Assembly: GCA_964016885.1 (NCBI GenBank)
Contig: OZ024747.1
Location: 55,118,001-55,182,000 of the forward strand
Length of the DNA stretch: 64,000 nt
Direction: 5' to 3'
DNA from: Eledone cirrhosa
Taxonomy: Eukaryota
The notes under the pieces were generated by a model that saw only the letters and a list, made by a program, of their open reading frames with translations, did not search any database and was not told where the DNA came from. Numbering within the stretch: the stretch's first letter is position 1; every line of letters begins with the position of its first letter. The translations under genes and the position numbers were made by a program. Positions 1,386 through 40,461 of this stretch are shown here, one piece after another.

Positions 1386-1574
1386 ACTGTTTCTACGTTA
1401 GGCACAAGACCAGCAATTACCCAGTGCATTACTGGTACTTTATGTTATCGACCCCGTAAGGATGAAAGGCAAAGTTAACCTTGGCGGGATTTGAACTCAG
1501 AATGGCAAGGGCCGTAACTCCATACGTCAAAGCATGGCGTCCGACCCTCTACCAATACTGCCAATCCACCGCCC
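1386..1574 (-). mobile_element. SINE family A, full length, 3' half of a 5S-SINE chimera
   Basis: Same consensus as the other copies; lies inside the target-site duplication shared with the 5S fragment. Confidence 0.9.
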
Positions 1575-1595
1575 TCATTTTTTTAAATTTTTTTT

Positions 1596-1691
1596 CAGCG
1601 CTCACCCATCTAACTACTAACTAGGCTCGACGTTGCTTAACTTCGGTGATGGGACGAGAACCGGTGTTTTCAGCGTGATATGGCCGTAAAC
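1596..1691 (-). pseudogene. 5S rRNA-derived sequence, 3'-truncated (~96 of ~120 nt)
   Basis: Minus strand GTTTACGGCCATATCACGCTGAAAACACCGGTTCTCGTCCCATCACCGAAGTTAAGCAACGTCGAGCCTAGTTAGTAGTTAGATGGGTGAGCGCTG matches metazoan/molluscan 5S rRNA from its first base; the terminal helix I partner is missing. Confidence 0.9.
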
Positions 1692-8971: not shown

Positions 8972-10340
8972 AAGAGATAAACAGAAATAACAACACAATC
9001 GGTGCAGAGTATGGAAAGAGTATATTAGTTTAACACTTGATATAGCAGGCGGAACTGCTTAACGTTTCGGGCGCTAGTCCTTCCTCAGAAGAAAGAATGA
9101 GAAATTAGAAAGATTGAAGGGACGGGCAGGGTAGAATCGGAAAAAATATTTTTAGAGAAAAATACCAGGTCCATTCATGTTGTCATGTCTTGGAAAACTG
9201 TTGATGCTGGCGTTTTGTGTATGATATACTTTTTTTTTTTTAGAAAAGTGGATGATGGTGCACGTCTATGAGAAATGGAAAAAAAAACGTTTTATATATA
9301 GAGCTATACGTGTGCGCGTGCGTATGAGTTTGCATGTATGTGTGTGAGTTTGCATGTGTGTGTGTGTGTGCGTATTTTGTTGGTCTGTATCACCTGTGAG
9401 AGTATATGTTTCTGACCATAAGCGAGCCATAGGAATCTAAGTGTAAATGTACAAGCGCGTAAGTGATAATGGATGGTGTAAAGGTGACGGGGGCAAAGGG
9501 TAGAGAAGAAAGTACGAATGTATATTTGTAATATTAAAGTAATTGCGGAGGGGAGTTGAGTGCACGAGGGAAACAAGACCCCAGCTGGTAAACCAGACTC
9601 TGTTCAGTCCTAGTGCGTGACGTCTGTGATCCGTGATGGAAAAGGACACCAATGACTGAGACATAGAGGGAAGAGTGACCAGGGCAACGGAAATGACAGG
9701 TGACGGGAATATCCATACAGAGTCGTATGTCTCTCAAATATTCGGCAAAACGGTCCGCCAAACGGCGTCCCGTGTGTCCGATGTATAAGGATACGCAAAG
9801 GGAACACCGGAGTGCATAGACAACGTGGGTGGGTGTACAGGTGAATGAGTGCCGGATACAGGATGAACCGTTTGTGTTTGTGAGAATGGTGAGGTTGGAA
9901 ATGAAAGGACAAGTGTAACAGTGGGGACGAGAACAAGAATGAGAGCCTGGTGGAGTCGTAGGGAAGGACGAGAAGGAACTGCGTACCAGGAGGTCATGCA
10001 TATTACGGGCGCACTTAAATGCATTGATAGGCCGGTTAGGAAAAAAACGTGAAGTGACGGGGTAGGAAGAGAGGGAGAGGAAGGAACGGAGCATATGTCG
10101 CCGGTGATGGGGTGGTTGGTGAGAGGGAAAGGAAGGCGGGTGTTGGGAGGGTGCTGGTGAGGTGAGAGGGCTGTGGTACGGTCGGTTTCACGGGCGATGG
10201 TGAGGGCAGCTTGGATCAAGGTGGGGAGGATATCCACGCTGGATGAAGCGGGAGGCCATGTGAAGGGAATACGTCTCGAATTCCTGGTCCGTGCTACAGA
10301 GCCGAATAGGACGGAGGAATTGGGAGTAGAGTAGAATATG
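8972..10340 (-). mobile_element. 5'-truncated Penelope-like element: RT thumb/linker, Cys-rich linker, GIY-YIG endonuclease, 3' UTR with hammerhead
   Basis: ORF 9534..10094 has C-x4-C-x2-C, then FTCTPTHVVYALRCSLCVSLYIGHTGRRLADRFAEY (VY...YIG.T.R.L..R..E), typical of PLE GIY-YIG domains; frameshifted upstream. Confidence 0.9.
9059..9092 (-). ncRNA. Minimal hammerhead ribozyme motif in PLE 3' end
   Basis: Minus strand CTGAGGA-AGGACTAGCGCCC-GAAA-CGTTA; palindromic stem III (AACGTT). The first stem II pair is mismatched and stem I is not obvious. Confidence 0.6.
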
Positions 10341-11110
10341 GAGAGCTTGGTGTGTGTTGGAGAGACAGCATCACAATAGAGCTGCTGTCAGCCTCTCAGC
10401 TTTATGACATATCTAACCTCCACCCTACACACTTCATCTATATATGTATCTGAACATATATATCTAACCCACATTTACACCCTACACATTTCATCTTCAT
10501 ATTTGAATATACATGTGTTATCATCTTAATTTGTATTCTACAAAATTCATATGCACTTGTTTTTAAAATTAACGTTCCTTTCCTTAAGGGATGTGGATTG
10601 GTAGAATCGTTAGTCACGTGCAAATATTTTGTTCTAGCTTTTTACATTCTCGGTTCAACTCTCACCGAAGTCAATGTTGCCCTTTATTCTTCCAAGGACG
10701 ATAAACTATAATCACGTGATGCAGTCAATATCATTGCCATTCTCTTCCCTGAAAAGTGTTGGCCTTCTGTCTAAATTAGTAAGCATCATTGATACACTCC
10801 AGTGGTTGGCACCATTGGTAGAATGCGGGACGAAATATTTAATACATATAAGGCGTGGAAATGGCGACTCAGATGTCCGAGCTTCGGATATAATGAATCT
10901 CTTGCGGAATTCGCTTCAGTTCTTTGCAATAAGAGCTCAAATGTTGATGAGATCAACTTTCTTTTCGTAATCGATAAATAAAGTACTAGTCAAGCATTAA
11001 TGCCGATTTTTCACATGATATCTATCTATCTATATATATATATATATATATGAAAAACAAGGGGAGAAGAATACTGCATGGTTGCACATGGATTACATAT
11101 TATAAAATTA

Positions 11111-11212
11111 GTCCCTCATCAGTGATTTGCCAACCATCATTGGTATTTCATCGCATTAAAAATCAGATACCTCAGGTTGGTGCGAGCAATAACTAAAATA
11201 AGCTATTGGGAC
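11111..11212 (-). ncRNA. Putative reversed-order, kink-turn-containing hammerhead ribozyme, copy 1 (in a TA-flanked element 11051-11310)
   Basis: GTCC-CAATAGC..GTTATTG-C-TCGCA-CCAACC-TGA-GGTAT-C-TGATTT-TTAA-TGCGA-T-GAAA-TACC-AATGAT-GGTTGG-C-AAATCA-CTGATGA-GGGAC; all helices pair and covary with copy 2. Confidence 0.65.
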
Positions 11213-11319
11213 AAGTGAAACGCGTAAAGCGAGTGAGACAAGTAAACAACAGAAGGAAAAGCAAACCGAAGGTTGGAAAACAGCAAGCCACATGATAGTT
11301 ATCCGATCAGCATAAGCTG

Positions 11320-11384
<65 letters not shown>

Positions 11385-13454: not shown

Positions 13455-13776
13455 AAATACAAATATTAATAAAATATTCGTTCTTTTTATCAATTACATT
13501 TTATTATACATATTTCGGATGTACAACAGTACGTCCTCATCAGACAAAATATAATGATATATGACATACCCTATCATTATATTTTGTCTGATGAGGACGT
13601 ACTGTTGTACATCCGAAATATGTATAATAAAATGTAATTGATAAAAAGAACTTCTATTTTATTAATATTTGTATTTCAATATTAATAACTCTGGAAAATT
13701 ATTTTCTATAGAGTGCTTCCAATCTACTGTAAAACTCATTCTATGATATACTCATTGAATCTTGTTTAACTCTTTA

Positions 13777-19747: not shown

Positions 19748-20174
19748 TGGCCAAAGATTAATATGGTTCATTGATTACTCAATGAATATAGTTTTACAAT
19801 AGATTAAAAGCACTCTACAAACACGTTTCTGGAGTTATTAATATTATTCAGAATATTAATAAATGAAGACATTCACATAATCAAAATATATGTTTTATTA
19901 TATATATTTCGAATGTACTGTGCTGTTTTTTCAGTACGTCCTCGTCAGATAAATTACATGAATTGATGTATGACATACCTCAACGATCTTGATGGTTCAA
20001 TTCCAATACTGGATTTGAACCATCAAGACCGTTGAAGTATGTCATACACCAATTCATGTATTTTATCTGACGAGGACGTACTGAACAAACATCGCAGTAC
20101 CTTCGAAATATATATAATAAAACTTATAGTTTGATTATGTGAATGTCTTCATTTATTAATATTCTGAATAATAT
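19748..20174 (-). mobile_element. Fold-back hammerhead element B (arms 19841-20005 / 20010-20174, tail 19748-19840)
   Basis: ~165-bp imperfect inverted repeat; CTGACGA 20067-20073 and GAAA 20105-20108, mirrored on the minus strand; tail homologous to the tail of element A. Confidence 0.85.
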
Positions 20175-20204: not shown

Positions 20205-23200
20205 CTATTTATTGCCAGGAGGGCACAACAGAAGGGGACAAATACAACGGGGGGGGGGGTTACATACAATAAATCGAGTACAAAAATATAACAAATAAAA
20301 TAAAACAATCGAAGTCCTCAATAAGGGTGGGGGCGTTTTGGAGTCGCACACCCTCCCGAAAAGATGTGCAACCATTCTCCTCGGTAGCACAAAGAGAGGG
20401 CGCTCCCTTCTTCCTCTACCTTTTTCACCTACACGCTGATATAGAGAGAAGGCCCATTCACACGGGCCATTCTCGCCACTTTCACCCACCTTTCATAAAA
20501 ACGGCTGGGGTGCAGCACCTCTCTCTCCATCCTGATCCTTCTTCCGAAATGGTATCGGATTAAGAGGACCAGTTGTTGGCGGGAGAGAAAGGTGTCCGAC
20601 CTCAGCCCTTTCAATCGCGTCCATCATATAACCTCTTTCACCATGGCTATTACGCCCAGAAACACCACCTCTCCTTCATTTTTGAAGAGGGGAGGCGGCA
20701 TGATCGTTACAATGGACTCGGTGGTCAACCGGATTGGTCCCACCCGTGACAGCAGTCGTTCGACATAGCCCCACAGTTCGGCGGCTCCCGGGCATTGTAC
20801 CAATGCGTGCGCAACAGTTTCCTTGTCGCGCACGCATCTGGGACAGGTCTTTTTCGAGGGGTTCCTACCAGGGCGCCCGTGCCTGTAGAGCTTTTCTCGA
20901 ACGGGCTGAGCCCCTCGGTAGCACTGCCAGGACAAGGACCTCTGGAAGTTATCCATAGGTCCCGGGCCAGATGTCCTACCGAACAGGCTGGCAGTTCATC
21001 TTACTCCATGCCTAGGGCTTCTCCAAGTGCGTCGTCGTAACTGCTGCGCACCAGCCCTCTATAGAATGTCGAGGTGGAGTCTCGATTGACAGCCGGGTCC
21101 GCCTTCCAAAGAGCCGTGAGCGTCTGGGCACACACGGTGTGCTAGGCGCCCAGTTTTCTCGTCTTTGCTTGACCCAGGATTGCAGTTCGGTCATTGAGAC
21201 GTTCTCGCAAAGGTTCGTCTCACAAACGGGGCCCACAACGGTTGACCGGTGAGGAATACCTGGAGGTGCCGTAGCCTTAATGCGTGTTTACGCATCATTA
21301 GCCACAGCATCGCCAGCCCTCCTTTCGAAGGGTGTTGACAGCAGATGAATCTCCTCACCAAAGGTGCCCGCCACGACGGTCAGGGGGTTGTAGATGACGG
21401 ACGCTATATAAGTGTTCGCCACCTTCGCCCGACCTTTCAGAGATAGTTTGCACTCGGCCCACTTCTGGGTCAGTGCTAACACCCTGTTCGATACATCACC
21501 CCAGTTCTTCTCCACCTGGAGGTCTGGTCCAAACCAGACCCCAAGCAACTTCACCGGGCCCTCCATCCAGCGTCCGGCGACGCCATCGGAGGCCATCGGT
21601 TTGCCCCTCCACGTGCCGAGTTGCAAACCGGTCGATTTGTCCCGGTTCAGCTTAGCCCCTGTAAACCTTTCATACTCCTCCAGTAAGATGCCGAACTCCC
21701 CGATTTCCGAGGTGGTCGACACCATTACTGTTACGTCATCGGCGTAGGCCGACACCGCTTTCCGCAATCCCGGTTCCAAAGGGATGCCCTGCAACAACTC
21801 CAACTTCCGCAGCAGTGGCTCGAGGGCCAATATATACAGAAGGGAGGAGAGAGGGCAACCCTGTCGGATGGACTGCGTGATATCGAACGGCTCCGAGAGG
21901 TAGCCGTTCACCTTGACTCTAGAGCAGATGCGGCTGCTGTGTATGGCAGTGATCCAGCCCTTGAAAACGGGTCCGAAACCTGCCGCCGCTAGCACCGCAT
22001 CCAGGTAAACATGGTCGACCCTATCGAACGCCTTAGACTGATCCAAGTTGATCAGGGCCTTACCAAAGCCGGGTTTATTCCATACCCTCTCTATGATGTA
22101 TCGCGTGAGGCGAAGGTTGTCGTGAATAGACCTGGACGGGATAGCACATGTCTGCGCATCTCCCACCAGGTTGCCCACGACAAGCGCCAACTTATTTGCT
22201 AATACCTTGGCCAAAATCTTTAATTCTGCATTTAGCAAAGTTATGGGCCTAAAATTGCTAATCTCATCCCCCCCTGTTCTTCCTCACTAGCGAGACTACG
22301 CCCTTGGTCACAGAACAGGGAATACTCCCGTTCTGTTGCAAGTTAAAGTAGACCGCCTCGAGGAGATCGGAGAACAGGTCCTGCATAGCTAAATAAAGTT
22401 CGTATGGAAGACTATCGAGACCCGGGGATTTGCGTTTGCCGCATTGGCTCAGCACGTTCCCTATTTCAGCAGCTCAAATCGGCCTCTCGCAGGACTTCGC
22501 CTCCTCGTCCAAAGGACGCGCTAGGCCGTCGAGGTATGGCCCGACGTTCACACCCCCATCCGACCCCCAACCCCTCCCGAACAATCGGGCAAAGTGCCTT
22601 TGAATGGCCTCACACATCTGCTTAGGTTCAAGGATCACCCGTCCATCCTGGTCTCGCAAAGACTGGATAGTGGATCTAATCCCTCTATGGCTTCTGTCAC
22701 GCGGGCCCAGCTAACAGCTTTGGTCCCCTCGTTTCCAAGAGCACGTATTTTGCTTCGGATAACGCAGCCTTCGTGCTTCGTGTCAAAGAACTGGCCCAAG
22801 GCCGTTCTCGACGCTAGCATTCTGGCCACGTCGCCACTTCTAATTGCCTCTTCTACTCTATCTACCAACTCTCTTTCCTTCCTATTTCTATCTGAGGCTA
22901 ACTCCTTATTAACTCCTATTGAAACTACTCTAATCTCTCTTTTCAGGTGTACCGTCTGTGTGGCGAGACCCAGATGTTTTTGCAGCAGAACGACAACCCC
23001 ACCCCCACCTCGGGCTGACAGAGAGATGCGTGCATCTCAAAGTCGTCAAAGGTGGGGGTTAGCTGGCGCACGCTGCTGATCCGGGCCTTGCAAATGACCA
23101 TCCCATTTATATAGCGTGACCTGAGATCATTTAGAAGTTTTACTTGCTTCCAATAGCGGCCCCACGTCCTCTTTAAAATTGTCCTTTAAAGTTTTGTATA

Positions 23201-25458: not shown

Positions 25459-25579
<121 letters not shown>

Positions 25580-25606
25580 TATATATATATATTTATATAT
25601 ATATAT

Positions 25607-27892
25607 ATTGTTATGCTTTGGGAGGGTCATGTTGCCAATAAGAAACGCACGCTGATCATACGCCCCATCATTGAAATGTCCCCAGATATATGTGACAACA
25701 CGGAGCACCTCCTCGGCAGGATCAGCGAAAGTAACCGATCTAGGGACCTAACAAACTGTATAATAGGTAGTATGGATATTGTATCCTTATATCCATCCAT
25801 TGGCGTGGATTTTACTGTGGAGAAATGCGAAGAAATAATCAGTGAGAGCAATGTTGAATTCTGTGGGATTGATACCAGTGAGCTGGGACTCCTACTTAAA
25901 CTTAGCTATAGTAATGATTATCTAGATACATATGACCTTAGCAACCTGTGTCCTACAAGACCAGCAAGAGGCAGACCACCTACCATTACCTCAATGGCCA
26001 AGAAAACCCACACAGATAGATGGAGCGGGTGGACCAGAGCGATACGGACCCCCGAAAGTCACGATGATCTAAATAAAATGATTGCACATGCGGTGGGGGC
26101 CAGTATAAAATTAACCCTTCAGGAACATATGTTCAAATTTAATGGAAAAACATATGCCCAAGAGGAGGGAGCAGCCATTGGTGTTAGCATTGCAGGTGAC
26201 ATAGCTAACCTATTCATGGTATGGTGGGACAATAGACTTAAACTTAAACTTAAAGAACAATTAGAAGACAGCAACCTCTTAACCCTGATAATGCACTCCC
26301 GCTACGTTGGTGATATAAACATCGTAGTAAAAAAAAACCCCATTAGAGAACAATCAGGAATTAGAGAAAAAAAACATGGAAAGCGTCCAGCAAATAGCTA
26401 AATCCATCCACCAGAGTATTAGAGTTACTATAGACTACGCAACCAAACACCCCAACCATCGATTACCTGTACTAGTCACAGAGCTCTGGTTACAAACCAT
26501 TAATAACAAAAATCAAATCCTTTATGCCAAACCCATGACTTCCAAATATCTAATCCACCGAAACTCAGCTGTTTCGGACCACACAAAAATCAACATACTG
26601 ATTGCGGATTTGTTACGGGTTATGAAAAACGTGTCCCGCATGTGCAACCCCAAAGAACTAGAGAGACACATACAACACTTCATCCACCGTATGCAGTTCT
26701 CTGGTTACAATCAAAGAGATAAAATCAGACTAAATAAAGGAGCCAGAACCAAATGGGAAAAAATGGTAAATAATGATACAAATGGGACCTGCCCTTTGTA
26801 TAGGAGCAAATTTTGGAATAGAATAGAAAGAACTAGGAATAAGGTTAATAGAATAAACTCATGGTATGATAGCAATAAATACCAGAGTATAATGTTCATC
26901 AATACAACCCCTAGTAGTGAATTAGCTTAAAAATGTAGAAGGGCCCTAGATAAACATAAACTCAATATTAAGATAGTAGAAAGACCAGGTACCACGATAA
27001 AAACACTTATTAGCAATACATACCCTTTTCAAAGACTCCCCTGTATAGATAAGAAATGTATAATCTATAAACTAAGACCCCATATTAACTGTAAAACAAG
27101 AAATGTAGTATATAGCATAAGATGTACTGAAGGACAATGTAGAGATAAGAAGATAGTGTACATAGGTGAGACAGCTCGTAGTATAGGAGCACGGATAAAT
27201 GAACACTGGCGAGAACTTCAAGATAGAAAAGAATCATCTGTACTCCACCAACATGCTAAAATAGAACATAAGGGTAAATTAGAGAATATAGAAATAAAAA
27301 TAGAATCTACACACAGAAAAGCTGCAATGTTTAGACAAATCACAAAGGCAATAAACATAAATCAACTCCAACCAAAATTAAATAGAAAACATGAATGGAA
27401 TAGCAACATCACAATTTACAATTAAGGACAAAATGAAAACACACACACACACATAGAACAAACAACCAACCAGTAACATGTAAATAAATAAATAAATAAA
27501 TAAACAAATATAAACACACACAGACACCCGGAGGTAACACATGCGCAAACTAAGCACACAACTCACACAAAAACAAGATGGCGTAGGACAGAACAAAGGA
27601 GAGGCACAAAAACAAAGAAAAGAATCCCCAGTCTCTGAAGAGGTCACCAAATATGTGACGAAAGAAATTTGACAATATATGAACAACCGCCCGGTTGTGG
27701 AACCAGCCAACCAACCGGAAATTTATAAACTCTTCAATTTATAAATTTAATTTATAGTAAATTGGAGTGAAAGCAACTGGTGCGTGTGTTTCTTATTGGC
27801 AACATGACCCTCCCAAAGCATAACAATATCGGCCTCATCATACGTTTTCAGATAAAGAATCTTGCTAAACAAATTCAGAAACAAAATATATA

Positions 27893-31959: not shown

Positions 31960-34900
31960 GCAATAATTACAACAACAGCGAGAACAACTAACTGCAAGAA
32001 CACCAACAACAAGAACAACAGTGAGAGCAGCCAAAAGAACATTCGGTGGCTGCGAAAACAAAACGATTTTTCAACATCGGTATCACAAACAAGGAACAAC
32101 GGTTGGCCTAGGCTCGGAATTTAATTACATGCGAGAAATCCTGGCCCATCTCCGGCGACACATTAGCCGCAATCCAGAGGAGAACTTTACATTTTCGATG
32201 TATTTCGGTGCAGACTTGCAAGGTGCATAATCACCAGCGAGGCAGAGGTCAAGGCTGCTTTGGAATGCATCAAAGATGATATTTAATACAAAACAAGGGC
32301 CAGACAGTTCGGCACCTTCTCGGTGCTGTTCAAAACCGAGGCCCTTGCTATTAAGCTCTCCATGGCCCCCTGCAGTACGCAACGCATCATTATGCACCCG
32401 TCCTACATGTGCAAAAGAACAGCGAAGGTCAGGATTCCTAGGTATGTGTGATCGAGGAGAATACCGACACTGCCCTCATAGATATCAGAAAGACTGACAG
32501 AGAGGACTGGTCCGGGAGGGCTTTTGAGATTCTTCACCAAATAAAATCAGTAGAGCAACTTTGTCCACTTGCAGGACGGGTCAACGATTCAGTTGATTAC
32601 TGACGCAAGAAGGCCGCACTGCTTCGTCTGCGGTGAAGCAACGCATCTGCGAGCCTTCTACCCTCAGCTCAAAAATGCAGGAGGCCGGAAACCTCCTTTG
32701 CTGCCGACGCCAGTGCCGGGACGGAAAGCTCCACCAGCACTGACACCAGCAGCCCCCTCCAACATCAAAAACAGTCGAACCACCACCAACACCTAAACCA
32801 ACCCAATGGGAAAATAAAGAAAGCTCTCCCATTCCCCTCCGCCTCAAAATATATGCATAGACAAAAACACAAACGCACACACAGATACACTTCCAGCCAC
32901 TGAACAACATCTTCCAGTAGTGAAGATGAGAAAAGACCCGAATCCACCAAAAAGTAAAAAAGAAAATATACAAAGCACAACAAAAACACTAAAAAATATG
33001 CAAACACCACCCACGGAAACACTTCCCCAACAACACCAACACCACTAAAACCACCATCCCCCAATTCCCCAAACGCAAACAACCTAAATAGATACAAGAA
33101 CAAATAAACACACAGACACCTGAAATTGCAGACACCACCCCTACAAGAAACACAAACACAACCGAAACAACACCAACAAAACCATCAACACCGCAGTCAC
33201 CCAAACGAAAACAAATAAAATCGCACCAGCAAAACATAAAAACATTTGTACTTGTCAGAAGGGCCAACAAGAAATTGATGGCCCTCGTAGTCAGAAGTGA
33301 AGAAATTCAAACAAAGGGGGAGATTTTTAAATTGAGCACATTTTGCGTGCCAAAAGATTTGTTTCCGGTACGAAAGTCACTCGATTCCTACAAAGGAATT
33401 CAAGAGAACTTTTCTCGAGACGTGGGAACACCAACGTGGACCCACATCGAGACTTTTAAAGGGGTTTCCAATGGAAACCTCACCAACAATAGAGGTCAAA
33501 CCACTCGACCTCCACAAGACAGCGGGAGATAAGTAAACCTTTCCTCTCTCTTTAGCCTGCCAGCATGGCCATATTAAGAGTAGGTTGTTTAAATGTTCTT
33601 GGCATGGGTTCAACCTGAAACAGGTTCGTCTGCTCAAAGAGCTCAACGACCTCAGCAATACCAAGATTTCCGACACGCGCGCACTATCCCCCATTTTCGA
33701 CGACTATCAGATCTTCGCATCTGTCAGTCGGCCGGGAATGAGAGGTGGGGTGGCAGCGCTGTTTAGAAAATGTGTGGATCTCGAGGTAAGTTCGATCTCC
33801 CGGGACCCGGACGGTAAGTTGGTGGTCCTGGTCGTGAACAATAGCGAAGGTGGTGCCTTTAGACTGGTGGCCGTCTACGCCCCTACAGGGGCAAGACGAC
33901 CGGACTTCTTTAGACGCCTGGAAACCTTTCTGTGTACGTCTCGCCCTTTACTGTTAGCAGGTGACTGGAACGGCATCTTAGACGCACGCTGGGACTGTGT
34001 GGGAGTATGCGATAGGAGTAGGGGTTGCAAAAGCTTCAAGTACCTGATCAGTCAGTTCCATCTCTCTGACAGGTACATACTACATTTCCCTAATGTGCCA
34101 GTATGGATCTGGACCAAACGAATAGGGTCATCTAGACCGTATATAGACAGGATATTGTTTAGGAAAATAGATAAAAATAGTGTAAGCTGTCCACGTTTTA
34201 AAACTGTCGGCTATTCAGATCAAAAGCTTGTGAGCTGAATGATCGAACTAGATACAACGTGTAGGTTAGGGCCTGGTTACTGGAAGCTGGACATGTAATT
34301 TCAGGCATGTAAGGCTTATAAGGACCGGGTCAACAATTTAGTTAGGCAAAAGTTAACAGGGAGAGTCGTCAATAACAGATAATGAGGGGACACACAAAAG
34401 ACAGGTTAGAGTAATTTAGATAGGGTTTAGCAAAGAAGTAGCATTTGAGAAAAATAGAAAGGAGGGGGAGCTGGTAGATAAGTTAGACGAAGCTATTTGT
34501 AGTGGCATTGCAACTGGCGTGCTAGCGGCGAGAATGGCATTAGACAGGTTCTTCAATGCGAAAGACGAAGGTTGCATTGTCAGAGCTAAGTCACGTGCTC
34601 TGAGAAACAAGGGAACCAAAGCTGTTTGGTAGGCCTTAGTGGCGGAGACGAAGCATGGTAATGAAACCACAATTCGGTCTTTGACGGACCAAGACGGACA
34701 CGATCTGAGCTATTCCAGGCGGAAGTGTGAGGCCTTTCGCCAGCATTTTGCTCGGTTGTTCGGGGGAAGTGGCGGGTCAGAGACCGTGGTGAACTTCAGT
34801 TGCTACCTCGATGGCTTGCCGCAAATCTCAACGGCCGATAACTTCAGCCGAAGTTCAGGACGCCCTTGTCGGCTGCACAAGGCGCCAATCATCCGCCTTG

Positions 34901-35975
34901 GATGGTCTGCCTTACGAGCTGTACGTAAATATGCCAGACATGTTCTCCGATCTCTTCGAAGCGCTCGACTGCAACTGGGAGCAGAACGGGAGTATTCCCA
35001 GAACTGTGAGCTGGGGCGTAGTGACGTTGATAAGGAAAGACAAGAACAAGAGGGATACATTAAATAATTTCAGGCCCATTACTCTGCTCAACACAGAGTG
35101 TAAGATTCTGGCCAAGGTGTTAGGGAAGAGGTTGGCGCTTCTCTTTGAGGATTTGGTTGAGGAGATGTAAACCTGGCTTTGGTGGGTCTCTGATCCATTT
35201 AGATCAATCGAAATCATTCGATAGGGTCGATCATCGGTACCTGGAGGCTGTCCTCAAGGCAGCTGGCTTCGGCCCCGTCTTCAGAAGCTGGATCACTGCA
35301 AAGCACAGCGGCATCTGCTCGGTGGTCAAAGTTAATGGCTACCTCTCGGAACCTTTTCAGATCGCCCGATCGGTCCGTCAAGGGTGCCCTCTCTCTTCTC
35401 TTCTGTACGTATTAACTCTCGAACCTTTACTGCTGAAGCTGGAGCTGTTGCAGGACCTCCCGCTCGAATCAGGATGCGGAAATGCTGTGTTGGCTTATGC
35501 GGATGGCATCACCGTGATGGCGTTAGACCTCTCGGAAATCGAGGTGGTCTGCAACTTATTGGAGAAATATGAAAGGTTGACGGGAGCGAAACTTAACCCG
35601 TAAAGTCGGTTGGCTTCACGTACATCACGTCCCCTCATCTACTACCACCTGACTGTCGTGCCTTGCCCCCGTCCGCGCCAAGCCAACTTGGAACGGCTTC
35701 TCTTCAAATTCTTGTGGAGGGGACAGGTTCCGTTGATGAGGCGATACTTCTGCTGCCAGCACCCTCTCCCTGGGGGGAAGGGCATGCTGTGGCTAATGAT
35801 GCGCAGACATGCGCTAAGGCTGCGTCATCTCCAAATATTCTGACTAAACGATGAACAGGTGTGGTCGCCGTTTGTCAGACAGGCCTTCCGCAGCTCGTCT
35901 CTTTGACTGAGCTGCAGTCCTGGGTCAAAAAGAGACCGAGACTGGGTCACTGGCATCTGGAATGTTGCCAGGCAC
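31960..35975 (+). mobile_element. Degenerate Tx1/L1-clade LINE, second subfamily (ORF1, APE, RT; 3' end lost)
   Basis: ORF1 RRPHCFVCGEATHLRA; APE FRLVAVYAP, LLAGDWN, IDRILF, SDQKLV (33585..34238); RT FRPITLLN, LDQSKSFDRVDH, RQGCPLS, AYADG. The 5' boundary is approximate. Confidence 0.9.
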
Positions 35976-37540: not shown

Positions 37541-39414
37541 GTTTCTTTTATTTGCCACTAGGGCATCAAAAGTGGGACAAGTACAAAGGGGGGAGTTTAC
37601 ACAAAAAGGCGTCCTCAATAAGGAGGAGGCAATAACAAAATATAAAAATAAAATAAGATATAACAAAAAATAAAATTTTTAACAAAATCCTCAATAGAGA
37701 GGAGGCGCCTTGGGGGGTCGCACACACCCCCGAAAAAAGTGTGCAACCCTTCTCCTCAGGAGCACAGAGAAGGGGTGCTCCCTTGGTCTTTCATCTTCCT
37801 CACCTATAGTCTGATGTAGAGTGAAGGCCCATTCACACGGGCCATTCTCGCCACTTTCACCCATCTTTCATAGAAACGGCTGGGGTGCAGCACCTCTCTC
37901 TCCATCCTGATCCTTCTTCCGAAATGATATCGGAAGAAACGGACCAGTTGTTGGCCAGAGAGAAAGGTGCCTGACCTCAGTCCTTTCAGACGCGTCCACC
38001 ATACAACCTCTTTCGCCATGGCTATTACGCACAGAAACACCGCCTCTGCTTCATCTTTGAAGGGGGGAGGCGGCTTGATCATTACAATAGACTCGGTGGT
38101 CAACCGGAACGGTCCCACCCTTGACAGCAGTTGTTCGACATAGCCCCACAGATCGGCTACGCCCGAGCAGTGTACCAATGCGTGTGCAACGGTTTCCTCG
38201 TCGCACACGCATCTGGGACAGATCTTTTTGGCGGGGTCCCTACCCGGGCGCCCGTGTCTGTAGAGCCTTTCTCGAACGGGTAAAGCCCCTCGGTAGCACT
38301 GCCAGGCCAGGGACTTCTGGAAGTTGTCCATAGGTCCCGGGCTGAATGTCCTACCGAACAGGCTGGCCAGTTCGTCCTCCTCCATGTCTAGGGCTTCTCC
38401 GAGGGCGTCGTCGCACCTGCTGCGTACCAGCCCTCTATAGAATGTTGCGGTGGAGTCTCCACTGATAACCGGATCCGCCTGCCAGAGGGCGGTGAGCGCC
38501 TGGGCACACTCAGTGTGCCAGGCGCCCAGTTTTCTCGGTCTTTGCTTGACCCAGGATTGCAGCTCGGTGAGTGAGACGAGTCTGGGAAAGGTTCGTCTTA
38601 CAAACGAGGCCCACACCGGTTGTCCGGTGAGGAATACGTAGAGGTGCCGTAGCCTTAATGCGTGTCTACGCATCATTAGCCACGGCATCCCCAGCCCTCC
38701 TTTCGAAGGGTGTTGACAGCAGATGGATCTCCTCACCATAGGAGCCCGCCTCTTCCAAAGGAATTGGAAGAGCGCGCGCTCCATCTTGGTGAGGGTTTCC
38801 CTTGGGCAGGGCACTACGGTCAGGCGGTAGTAGATGACGGACGCTATGTAGGTGTTCGCCACCTCCGCCCGACCTTTCAGGGATAGTTTGCAACTGGCCC
38901 ACTTCTGGGTCAGTGCAAACACCCTGTTCGTAACCTCCGCCCAGTTTTTCTCCACCTGGAGGTCCGGTCCGAACCAGACCCCGAGCAACTTCACCGGGCC
39001 CTCCGTCCAGCGTCCGACGACGCCATCGGAGGGCATCGGTCTGCCCCTCCACGTGCCGAGTTGCAAACCGATCGACTTGTCCCGGTTCAGCTTAGCCCCT
39101 GTGAACTTTTCGTACTCCTCCAGTAAGGTGCCGACCGCCTCGATTTCGGAGGCCGTCGACACCATTACTGTCACGTCATCGGCGTAGGCCGACACCGCTT
39201 TCCGCAATCCCGGTTCCAAAGGGATGCCCTGCAACAACTCCAACTTCCGCAGTAGTGGCTCTAGAGTCAACACATACAGAAGGGAGGAGAGAGGGCACCC
39301 TTGTCGGATGGACCGCGCGATTTTGAACGGCTCCGAGAGGTAGCCGTTCACCTTGACCCTAGAGCAGATGCGGCTGCTGTGCATAGCAGTGATCCAGCCC
39401 CTGAAAACGGGTCC

Positions 39415-39415
<1 letters not shown>
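37541..39415 (-). mobile_element. 5'-truncated, young Tx1/L1-clade LINE; ORF2 is open over the whole retained part (37804-39415)
   Basis: Uninterrupted ~535 aa with RQGCPLSSLLY, AYADD and CPRC..ETVAHALVHC; highly similar to 20435-21975; both ends abut pure (GATA)n. Confidence 0.95.
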
Positions 39416-39448
<33 letters not shown>

Positions 39449-39482
39449 AAGGAAGAGAGTGATGGGTATATATATATATATG

Positions 39483-39929
39483 TAGAAGTTCTATTTAAAT
39501 TGTTGGGATACAACAAGCAAATATTTTTATAAATGATATAAAGCACTCAACAAATTATTGGAGTAAAAATACGATATATTAACAAATGGAAACGATATTT
39601 ATAAAACCATATTTATTTCATTATACATATTTCAAGGACACCAAGTTAAATTATGGTGTGCTTTCATCAGATGAAATATAATATAGATCAGTTTATAAAT
39701 ATTGACATACCATTAAAGAATGTGACCATTTCTGTTGGAAGCTTGTGGGAGCTTCCAACAGAAATGGTCGCATTCTTTAAGGGTATGTCAATATTTATTT
39801 ATAAAACTGATCTATATTATATTTTATCTGATGAAAGCACACCATAATTTAACTTGGTGTCCTTGAAATATGTATAATGAAATAAATATGGTTTTATAAA
39901 TATAGTTTCCATTTGTTAATATATCGTAT
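39483..39929 (-). mobile_element. Fold-back hammerhead element C (arms 39569-39743 / 39750-39929, tail 39483-39568)
   Basis: ~175-bp inverted repeat; CTGATGA 39828-39834 and GAAA 39865-39868, mirrored on the minus strand; flanked by (TA)n. Confidence 0.85.
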
Positions 39930-40009
39930 ATATATATATATATATATATATATGTAAATATGATAATAATGGAGCTGCGGCGCTGCAAATGGGTTACATA
40001 TGAATAAGT

Positions 40010-40115
40010 GTGTCCTCATCAGTGGCCATCCAACCGTCGTAGGCATTTCGTCGCATTAAAGGCCATATACCTCAGGTTGGTGCGAGCAACGGCTAAACAA
40101 AAGTCGTTGGAACAC
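40010..40115 (-). ncRNA. Putative reversed-order, kink-turn-containing hammerhead ribozyme, copy 2 (in a TA-flanked element 39953-40381)
   Basis: GTGTTC-CAACGAC..GCCGTTG-C-TCGCA-CCAACC-TGA-GGTAT-A-TGGCC-TTTAA-TGCGA-C-GAAA-TGCC-TACGAC-GGTTGG-AT-GGCCA-CTGATGA-GGACAC. Confidence 0.65.
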
Positions 40116-40377
40116 GTAAATAAAGGGGACGCTAGGGTAAACAAACAAAATGGTTTAAGCAGCAGAAAGTGATGAAGAAGGAAACAAGTTCCAGATTTCT
40201 ATGAATATAAATTCGGTGGAACGAGAGAATAAAGTCCATCAAACCTGGTTGAAATGTGAGCAAGGAAGGAATTTCGCACAGGTCTAACGGGAGGAAGAAG
40301 GGGTCTGATCTGCGAATTCGGTAAACATAAGTTCTGAGAAGTCGCAGACGAGAGAGAGAGAGAAAAAAAATTCATAC

Positions 40378-40461
<84 letters not shown>

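Follow-up and report, generated by a model that had tools for sequence, protein, structure and literature searches.

In the window (the whole stretch of 64,000 nucleotides of the Eledone cirrhosa contig OZ024747.1 that was analyzed), reading of the sequence places a hammerhead core on the minus strand at 40115-40010, with its conserved blocks in S-G-C order, that is, site, GAAA and CUGAUGA. The question is what a core of this order is, what kind of unit carries it and from which element it derives. The explanation which, taken as a whole, appears probable is an S-G-C hammerhead of Naiad ancestry, located in a non-coding tandem retroposon and cutting its own RNA at 40066/40065.

Two copies and their predicted architecture

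The core is found twice in the window, both times on the minus strand and with an offset of 28,900 nt (CTGATGA at 40016-40022 and at 11116-11122). The second ribozyme copy lies at about 11215-11110, and its core spacing is identical to that of the 40-kb copy. Both are parts of truncated non-coding units, as follows.

39952..40381, minus strand: 5'-truncated copy (430 bp) of a ~620-bp non-coding unit of subfamily A, flanked by two (TA)n tracts
39952..40009, minus strand: 3' end of the 40-kb copy, long terminus (Penelope-type tail)
39927..39961, no strand: (TA)n tract at the 3' end of the 40-kb copy, likely the insertion target
40382..40422, no strand: (AT)n tract at the 5' end of the 40-kb copy
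11050..11321, minus strand: sister copy of subfamily B (~530-bp unit), 5'-truncated, predicted cut 11166/11165

An earlier note on this DNA had described a reversed-order hammerhead in two copies 28.9 kb apart with the same core spacing, and the alignment of both copies confirms it. The differences that it listed are all present in the alignment: the change of stem I from UGAUU/AAUCA to UGGCC/GGCCA, two compensated pairs and one A-C mismatch in the 5' hairpin, a U-G wobble in stem III, C to A at H17, G-U to G-C at 10.1-11.1 and AAU to UAC in the K-turn bulge; the blocks given as invariant are so. The K-turn 3b position shows an additional change (U to C) between the copies. The shared ATATGTAAYCCATKTGCA, followed by (TA)n, was recovered about 60-65 nt after the core in both copies, and the predicted cut, placed by analogy with hammerheads, stays between 40066 and 40065. 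The flanks, said to diverge strongly, do differ, but the upstream parts of both units are partly related (79% over 61 nt).

One helix had been overlooked. In detail, GUGUU at the 5' end (40115-40111) pairs with GACAC at the 3' end (40014-40010), which closes the RNA and turns stem II into a junction. The complete architecture, read along the minus strand, comprises the following parts.

40111..40115, minus strand: first half of the splint strand (GUGUU), closing the ribozyme by pairing with 40014-40010; covarying helix 1
40087..40109, minus strand: hairpin within the splint, forming the third junction arm; covarying helix 2
40081..40085, minus strand: second half of the splint strand (UCGCA), pairs with 40055-40051 and replaces distal stem II; covarying helix 3
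40075..40080, minus strand: 5' strand (CCAACC) of the 6-bp helix beyond the K-turn, pairs with 40035-40030; covarying helix 4
40072..40074, minus strand: non-bulged K-turn strand (UGA), its G and its A each kept in 74 of 76 copies, unforced by the search pattern
40065..40071, minus strand: block S, with the stem III strand GGUAU, U16.1 at 40067 and H17 as A40066; predicted cut 40066/40065
40061..40065, minus strand: stem I strand 3' of the predicted cut (UGGCC), pairs with 40027-40023; covarying helix 6
40042..40055, minus strand: block G, with UGCGA, C11.1 (40050), GAAA (40049-40046) and a stem III strand
40030..40041, minus strand: bulged K-turn strand (UAC-GA-C, 40041-36) and 3' strand of the helix beyond
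40010..40027, minus strand: block C, with the stem I strand GGCCA, CUGAUGA (40022-40016), G10.1 (40015) and the splint-pairing strand

Every nucleotide of the hammerhead core is present (C3 U4 G5 A6 N7 G8 A9, G12 A13 A14, A15.1-U16.1 and H17). Stem III is formed by 40071-67 with 40046-42 and stem I by 40065-61 with 40027-23. Between blocks G and C an ordinary stem II is absent, and G40015 with C40050 (10.1 and 11.1) is the sole direct pair. As shown by covariation, the 5' splint pairs with both halves of stem II, and the predicted form is a four-way junction around the single 10.1-11.1 pair. Stems I, II and III flank the core with covariation, stem II being composed of this pair and the junction. 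Compared with its sister subfamilies, subfamily A lacks one nucleotide after CUGAUGA and, because of this, has an alternative register for the G-C pair.

In a K-turn, two helices are separated by a 3-nt bulge, after which come tandem G-A and A-G pairs; this arrangement is found at the locus. A snoRNA reading of the box C/D-like strands was rejected; it has no support from Rfam, and the boxes sit inside hammerhead stems. At the locus Rfam gave three weak unrelated matches and no hammerhead, an expected outcome for a strand order missing from its models. Over the whole window no hammerhead appeared among the matches listed (150 of 252), and the repeat search was dominated by microsatellites.

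The minimum-energy fold of subfamily A (-29.3 kcal/mol) is a competing long helix which disrupts both the hairpin and the helix of the K-turn. For the nested pairs of the proposed fold the value is -15.8 kcal/mol, not counting the two pseudoknot helices. The predicted fold of the 11-kb copy, unlike that of the 40-kb copy, is already the nested part of the model.

Covariation and genome-wide copies

Pair counts were used in place of a covariance model, because such a model cannot hold pseudoknots. They were made on 20 copies hand-picked from 82 to cover the subfamilies; the closing helix is out of register in both rows of subfamily A, and the 5' end of the oldest subfamily is poorly aligned. 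In this set 88.5% of 654 cells are paired and 25 of the 33 pairs changed on both sides, as opposed to 26-47% paired in slid controls, which are generous, since these related sequences also served to derive the structure. The earlier note had named random, non-compensated substitutions in further copies as evidence against the structure; what the further copies show is covariation in all seven helices across subfamilies. The pair counts back the fold but yield no probability, and part of the invariance can reflect common descent.

A second, position-ordered set contains 90 distinct copies, 76 of them with an intact 5' half. In these 76, U16.1 is present without exception, H17 is restricted to A (55) or C (21), and 10.1-11.1 is paired in 74 as A-U, G-U, G-C or U-A; the search forced none of these positions, and they follow the hammerhead pattern. 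When GAAA and CUGANGA were left free, both were intact in 92 of the first 100 of 10,878 matches, counted by eye; the other eight carry single changes, each of them different. N7 is, in this search, the sole recurrently variable position (C in 11 of the 100 matches listed, also by eye).

Exact matches to the core pattern number 12,847 in the genome (3.0 Gb), as opposed to none for its reversed version. The same holds for two other versions of the pattern, with 2,545 and 10,878 exact matches, each against 0 for the reversed one. A 21-mer of subfamily A occurs 975 times, and 14 loci of this subfamily, chosen by position, are 95-98% identical to one unit. DNA searches with the two copies gave 1,341 and 1,999 candidates, of which 40 were scored for each. 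With a looser pattern the matches were 75, as opposed to 9 in the control, and they included older subfamilies with different stems. One older subfamily (L086, L091, L094 and L095) keeps the S-G-C core, the K-turn and the splint, while its hairpin arm is seemingly absent.

In subfamily A (~620 bp) and subfamily B (~530 bp) the units are arranged head to tail, with the ribozyme close to their 3' end. Over all intervals seen, the tandem units measure 502-706 bp and contain one hammerhead each. Nine ribozyme-bearing units about 750 bp apart form a tandem array at one further locus (L265, C1:43918174-43924210). Neither unit A nor unit B has an ATG-initiated ORF above 74 aa. The carriers are ORF-less, retrozyme-like tandem units and not the ends of coding elements. 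The earlier note had placed the hammerhead in the pseudo-LTRs of a Penelope-like element; the Penelope-type setting stands, but the copies here belong to these ORF-less units and not to pseudo-LTRs of a coding element.

The insertions sit in (TA)n, are variably truncated at the 5' end, often have an inverted 5' piece and carry a tail at one end only. There are two alternative 3' termini, about 45 nt apart and both ending in ATAT, and inverted insertions often carry one of them at each end. Flanks of (TA)n, partial tandems, inversions and a one-sided tail are described for Penelope-like elements in the available text of PMC8557442. These features are not diagnostic of Naiads, because other Penelope-like clades share them.

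An intact ribozyme is kept 60-110 nt inside the 3' end of the copies; therefore, the copied RNA spanned the cut site. With an active ribozyme, a template that spans the cut would have been either circular or incompletely cut. Read-through of the predicted cut site is seen in many genomic copies. In the map of 5' ends, 7 of 75 boundaries fall within 8 nt of the predicted cut and 15 of 75 in another stretch of 47 nt; one junction is located exactly at the predicted cut, and one inverted arm ends there.

By analogy, the RNA most likely acts like the hammerhead of a retrozyme, with cleavage predicted between 40066 and 40065. The K-turn motif beyond stem III would bend the chain back, and one helix would tie stems I and II together at their far ends, replacing the usual loop-loop contact. 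Head-to-tail transcripts would be cleaved into RNAs of unit length, which likely circularize. The circles would then be copied into nicked (TA)n by a borrowed reverse transcriptase and endonuclease of Penelope type, and the insertion anatomy suggests priming at the ATAT ends and copying that often proceeds more than once round the unit.

The window contains several other elements. At 39600-39930 there is an inverted pair of the minimal type I hammerhead (CTGATGA at 39664-39670, minus strand, and at 39828-39834, plus strand), a separate Penelope-type remnant which adjoins the ribozyme copy in the same (TA)n tract. Minimal type I hammerheads of the usual order form two further inverted pairs, at 13537-13594 and 19942-20073. 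Broken Penelope-like elements with a C-terminal GIY-YIG are found at 25460-27700 (plus strand) and 9082-10387 (minus strand), and the 3' end of both includes a hammerhead-like core in the usual order (27635 and 9088). Fragments of LINE-type endonuclease and reverse transcriptase are located at 37804-39546 (minus strand, with an open frame of 580 aa), 21288-23036 (minus strand) and 33537-35603 (plus strand). A piece derived from 5S rRNA (1563-1691, minus strand; Rfam 56 bits, above the cut-off) has a diverged 3' half and is joined to a common repeat, possibly as a 5S-derived SINE or a pseudogene.

Catalysis, parentage and the mobilizing enzyme

That the motif is a conserved coding segment or a chance resemblance is scarcely credible. 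The folding z-scores of only -1.2 and -1.3 and the lack of an Rfam hammerhead match at the locus would agree with it, but neither the z-score tool nor Rfam models pseudoknots or the S-G-C strand order. The covariation of seven helices, the lack of any ORF above 74 aa, the 12,847 matches against 0 and the search with the free core contradict it. It is improbable, too, that the fold is real and the RNA cuts poorly or not at all when alone, needing an L7Ae-family protein on the K-turn or the pairing of two units. Such a dependence on a helper would suit the U-U found at 3b-3n in 22 of 76 copies, U-U at this place being the box C/D type of K-turn, which is protein-dependent; other copies have C-U, U-G, A-G, A-A or C-C there. 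The competing fold of subfamily A also points in this direction, whereas all the stems are able to form in cis. The many genomic copies which read through the cut site are in line with poor cutting, but a circular template predicts read-through equally. The slow cleavage of published type-SGC RNAs (0.007-0.19 per min in PMC10085705) adds to the case for a helper.

We give little credence to the reading in which the structure is kept as a handle for a borrowed reverse transcriptase and catalysis has been lost. A distance of 60-110 nt from the 3' end is the usual place of such handles, and the 5' ends form no clear pile-up at the cut. On the other hand, ten catalytic positions are free of change at the level of subfamilies, while N7, the bulge and the stems vary, which is the pattern expected of catalysis. 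A self-cutting hammerhead remains the preferred reading, and its parentage is considered next.

Among published elements, Naiad_Obim and Naiad_Ovul come closest. In their consensus sequences (PMC8557442), compared by eye, the sense-strand ends 3' of the ORF share the splint, the hairpin loop, the K-turn and the spacing; the distance to CUGAUGA is 14 nt as here, and the hairpin loop is that of subfamilies B and C. In the Naiad part of this consensus file, the splinted S-G-C fold was recognized by eye at 7 of 19 CTGATGA places, a count that covers the letters CTGATGA within unbroken lines and N7 = T alone. The seven places belong to Naiad_Obim, Naiad_Ovul, three near-identical Acropora elements and two further elements, and the five other than Naiad_Obim and Naiad_Ovul have the splinted fold without that K-turn. 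In these published Naiads 10.1 and 11.1 appear, by eye, to pair with the splint and not with each other. Two other CTGATGA places in the consensus sequences show the usual core order.

In the genome of E. cirrhosa the first Naiad reverse transcriptase (RT) motif had no match, and the second had 12 matches, all decayed. A 70-aa Naiad RT query gave 62 matches among 84 candidates, none of them with an open frame longer than 233 aa. Over the RT region, the similarity among the Naiad remnants is about 64-85%. The parent ORF that the earlier note expected upstream of the ribozyme was not found joined to it at any of 32 Naiad-remnant loci; the three SGC copies at Naiad-remnant loci are separate insertions, and the GIY-YIG loci likewise show only separately inserted copies. 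CUGANGA is absent from the majority line of the 3' region of one Naiad remnant family (19 of 30 loci). The 3' region of this decayed family (L389-L418) has a box C/D-like strand pair without a recognizable hammerhead core. One decayed ribozyme copy (L160, a match of L069) has a block G like that of the Naiad_Obim and Naiad_Ovul ends, with no RT seen upstream.

Judged from these sequences, the 3' end of a Naiad is the likely ancestor of the ribozyme. As for the Penelope-like parent proposed in the earlier note, a link to Naiads can be drawn by eye through the published consensus ends, but no joined element exists among the genomic loci seen.

The search for GIY-YIG returned 10,597 candidates, of which 150 were scored and 20 top plus 20 long-frame loci were examined; every long frame shown among these has a C-terminal endonuclease. 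The young elements of this kind are 94-99% alike, with ORFs of up to 1096 aa, and are called Neptune-like here by their cysteine motif and without a tree. It is nearly an even chance, though somewhat less, that the recent bursts used these elements in trans and not a Naiad, a reading which differs in the mobilizer only. The similarity within subfamily A (95-98%) is near that of the young elements and above that of the Naiad remnants. Against this, units A and B share no sequence with the Neptune-like elements beyond separately inserted copies, and a divergent or unassembled active Naiad may have escaped detection, because two short motifs and a single query of 70 aa were all that the searches relied on.

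A wider proposal is that Naiad-type retroelements and their non-coding parasites share a new S-G-C architecture (splint and four-way junction, with the K-turn here), and that the parasites outlived their Naiad parent through a switch to a different enzyme of Penelope type. It is tentative, and we regard it as rather unlikely. If it is true, the about 20 base pairs that hold both cut ends could let the ribozyme ligate RNA into circles.

Comparison with known systems

The S-G-C block order itself is already published. In the available text of Eckert et al. (2023, PMC10085705), type-SGC RNAs (HRIMA-1, SGC variant) with the order site, GAAA, CUGAnGA cleave in vitro, and they derive from metatranscriptomes only, none being from the genome of a known organism. 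The type-SGC order, previously reported from environmental RNA of unknown hosts only, now has more than 12,000 copies in the genome of an animal, and the subfamilies are a natural series that supplies covariation. Surveys of animal genomes limited to types I-III would miss the S-G-C class. The splinted form is undescribed in the titles and abstracts listed on type-SGC, K-turn hammerheads and Naiad ribozymes, among which subscription journals are thinly covered. In metagenomes, 120 loci were sampled out of about 780, and in none of them did stems I and III both reach 4 pairs; the strict stem score passed only 1 of 30 genome loci found with the loose pattern, all selected for a change next to GAAA, which makes them an unfair positive control.

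For Naiads, the available text of Craig et al. (2021, PMC8557442) reports no canonical hammerhead and only 'core' and 'half core' marks. The splinted form offers a candidate answer to how Naiads spread without canonical hammerheads, in that some may carry a form invisible to standard descriptors. The units resemble the Naiads of that paper in the (TA)n target, the partial tandems, the inverted 5' pieces and the tail at one end, whereas the ORF with N-terminal GIY-YIG and C-terminal RT is missing from units A and B.

In animals, non-LTR retrozymes are defined by hammerheads of type I; their RNAs measure about 170-400 nt, and circular RNA has been shown for them (Cervera and de la Pena 2020, PMC7229834; Li et al. 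2026, 10.64898/2026.07.22.740005). They share with the units of E. cirrhosa a non-coding tandem structure with a single hammerhead per unit, dispersal at high copy number and a tie to Penelope-like elements. On the contrary, their hammerhead is of type I, and here it is of type SGC in units of 500-700 bp.

With type SGC, as presented in PMC10085705, the ribozyme shares the block order, all core nucleotides, a 5-bp stem I and a short linker between stems I and II. In type SGC, stems I and II are tied by an extra helix; here the covarying helix 4 is equivalently placed, but it is wired from the 5' side. Stem II pairs blocks G and C directly in type SGC, as can be seen in the sequences of the SGC variant, whereas here it consists of one pair and a splinted four-way junction. 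Here stem III is connected to helix 4 through a K-turn motif, and the word 'kink' is absent from the main text of that paper. This link bears on the geometric question of Eckert et al. (PMC10085705), namely, how the end of stem III can be joined to the helix between stems I and II. The splinted S-G-C hammerhead has the order of type SGC, and it departs from the direct stem II of that type and from the type I hammerhead of retrozymes.
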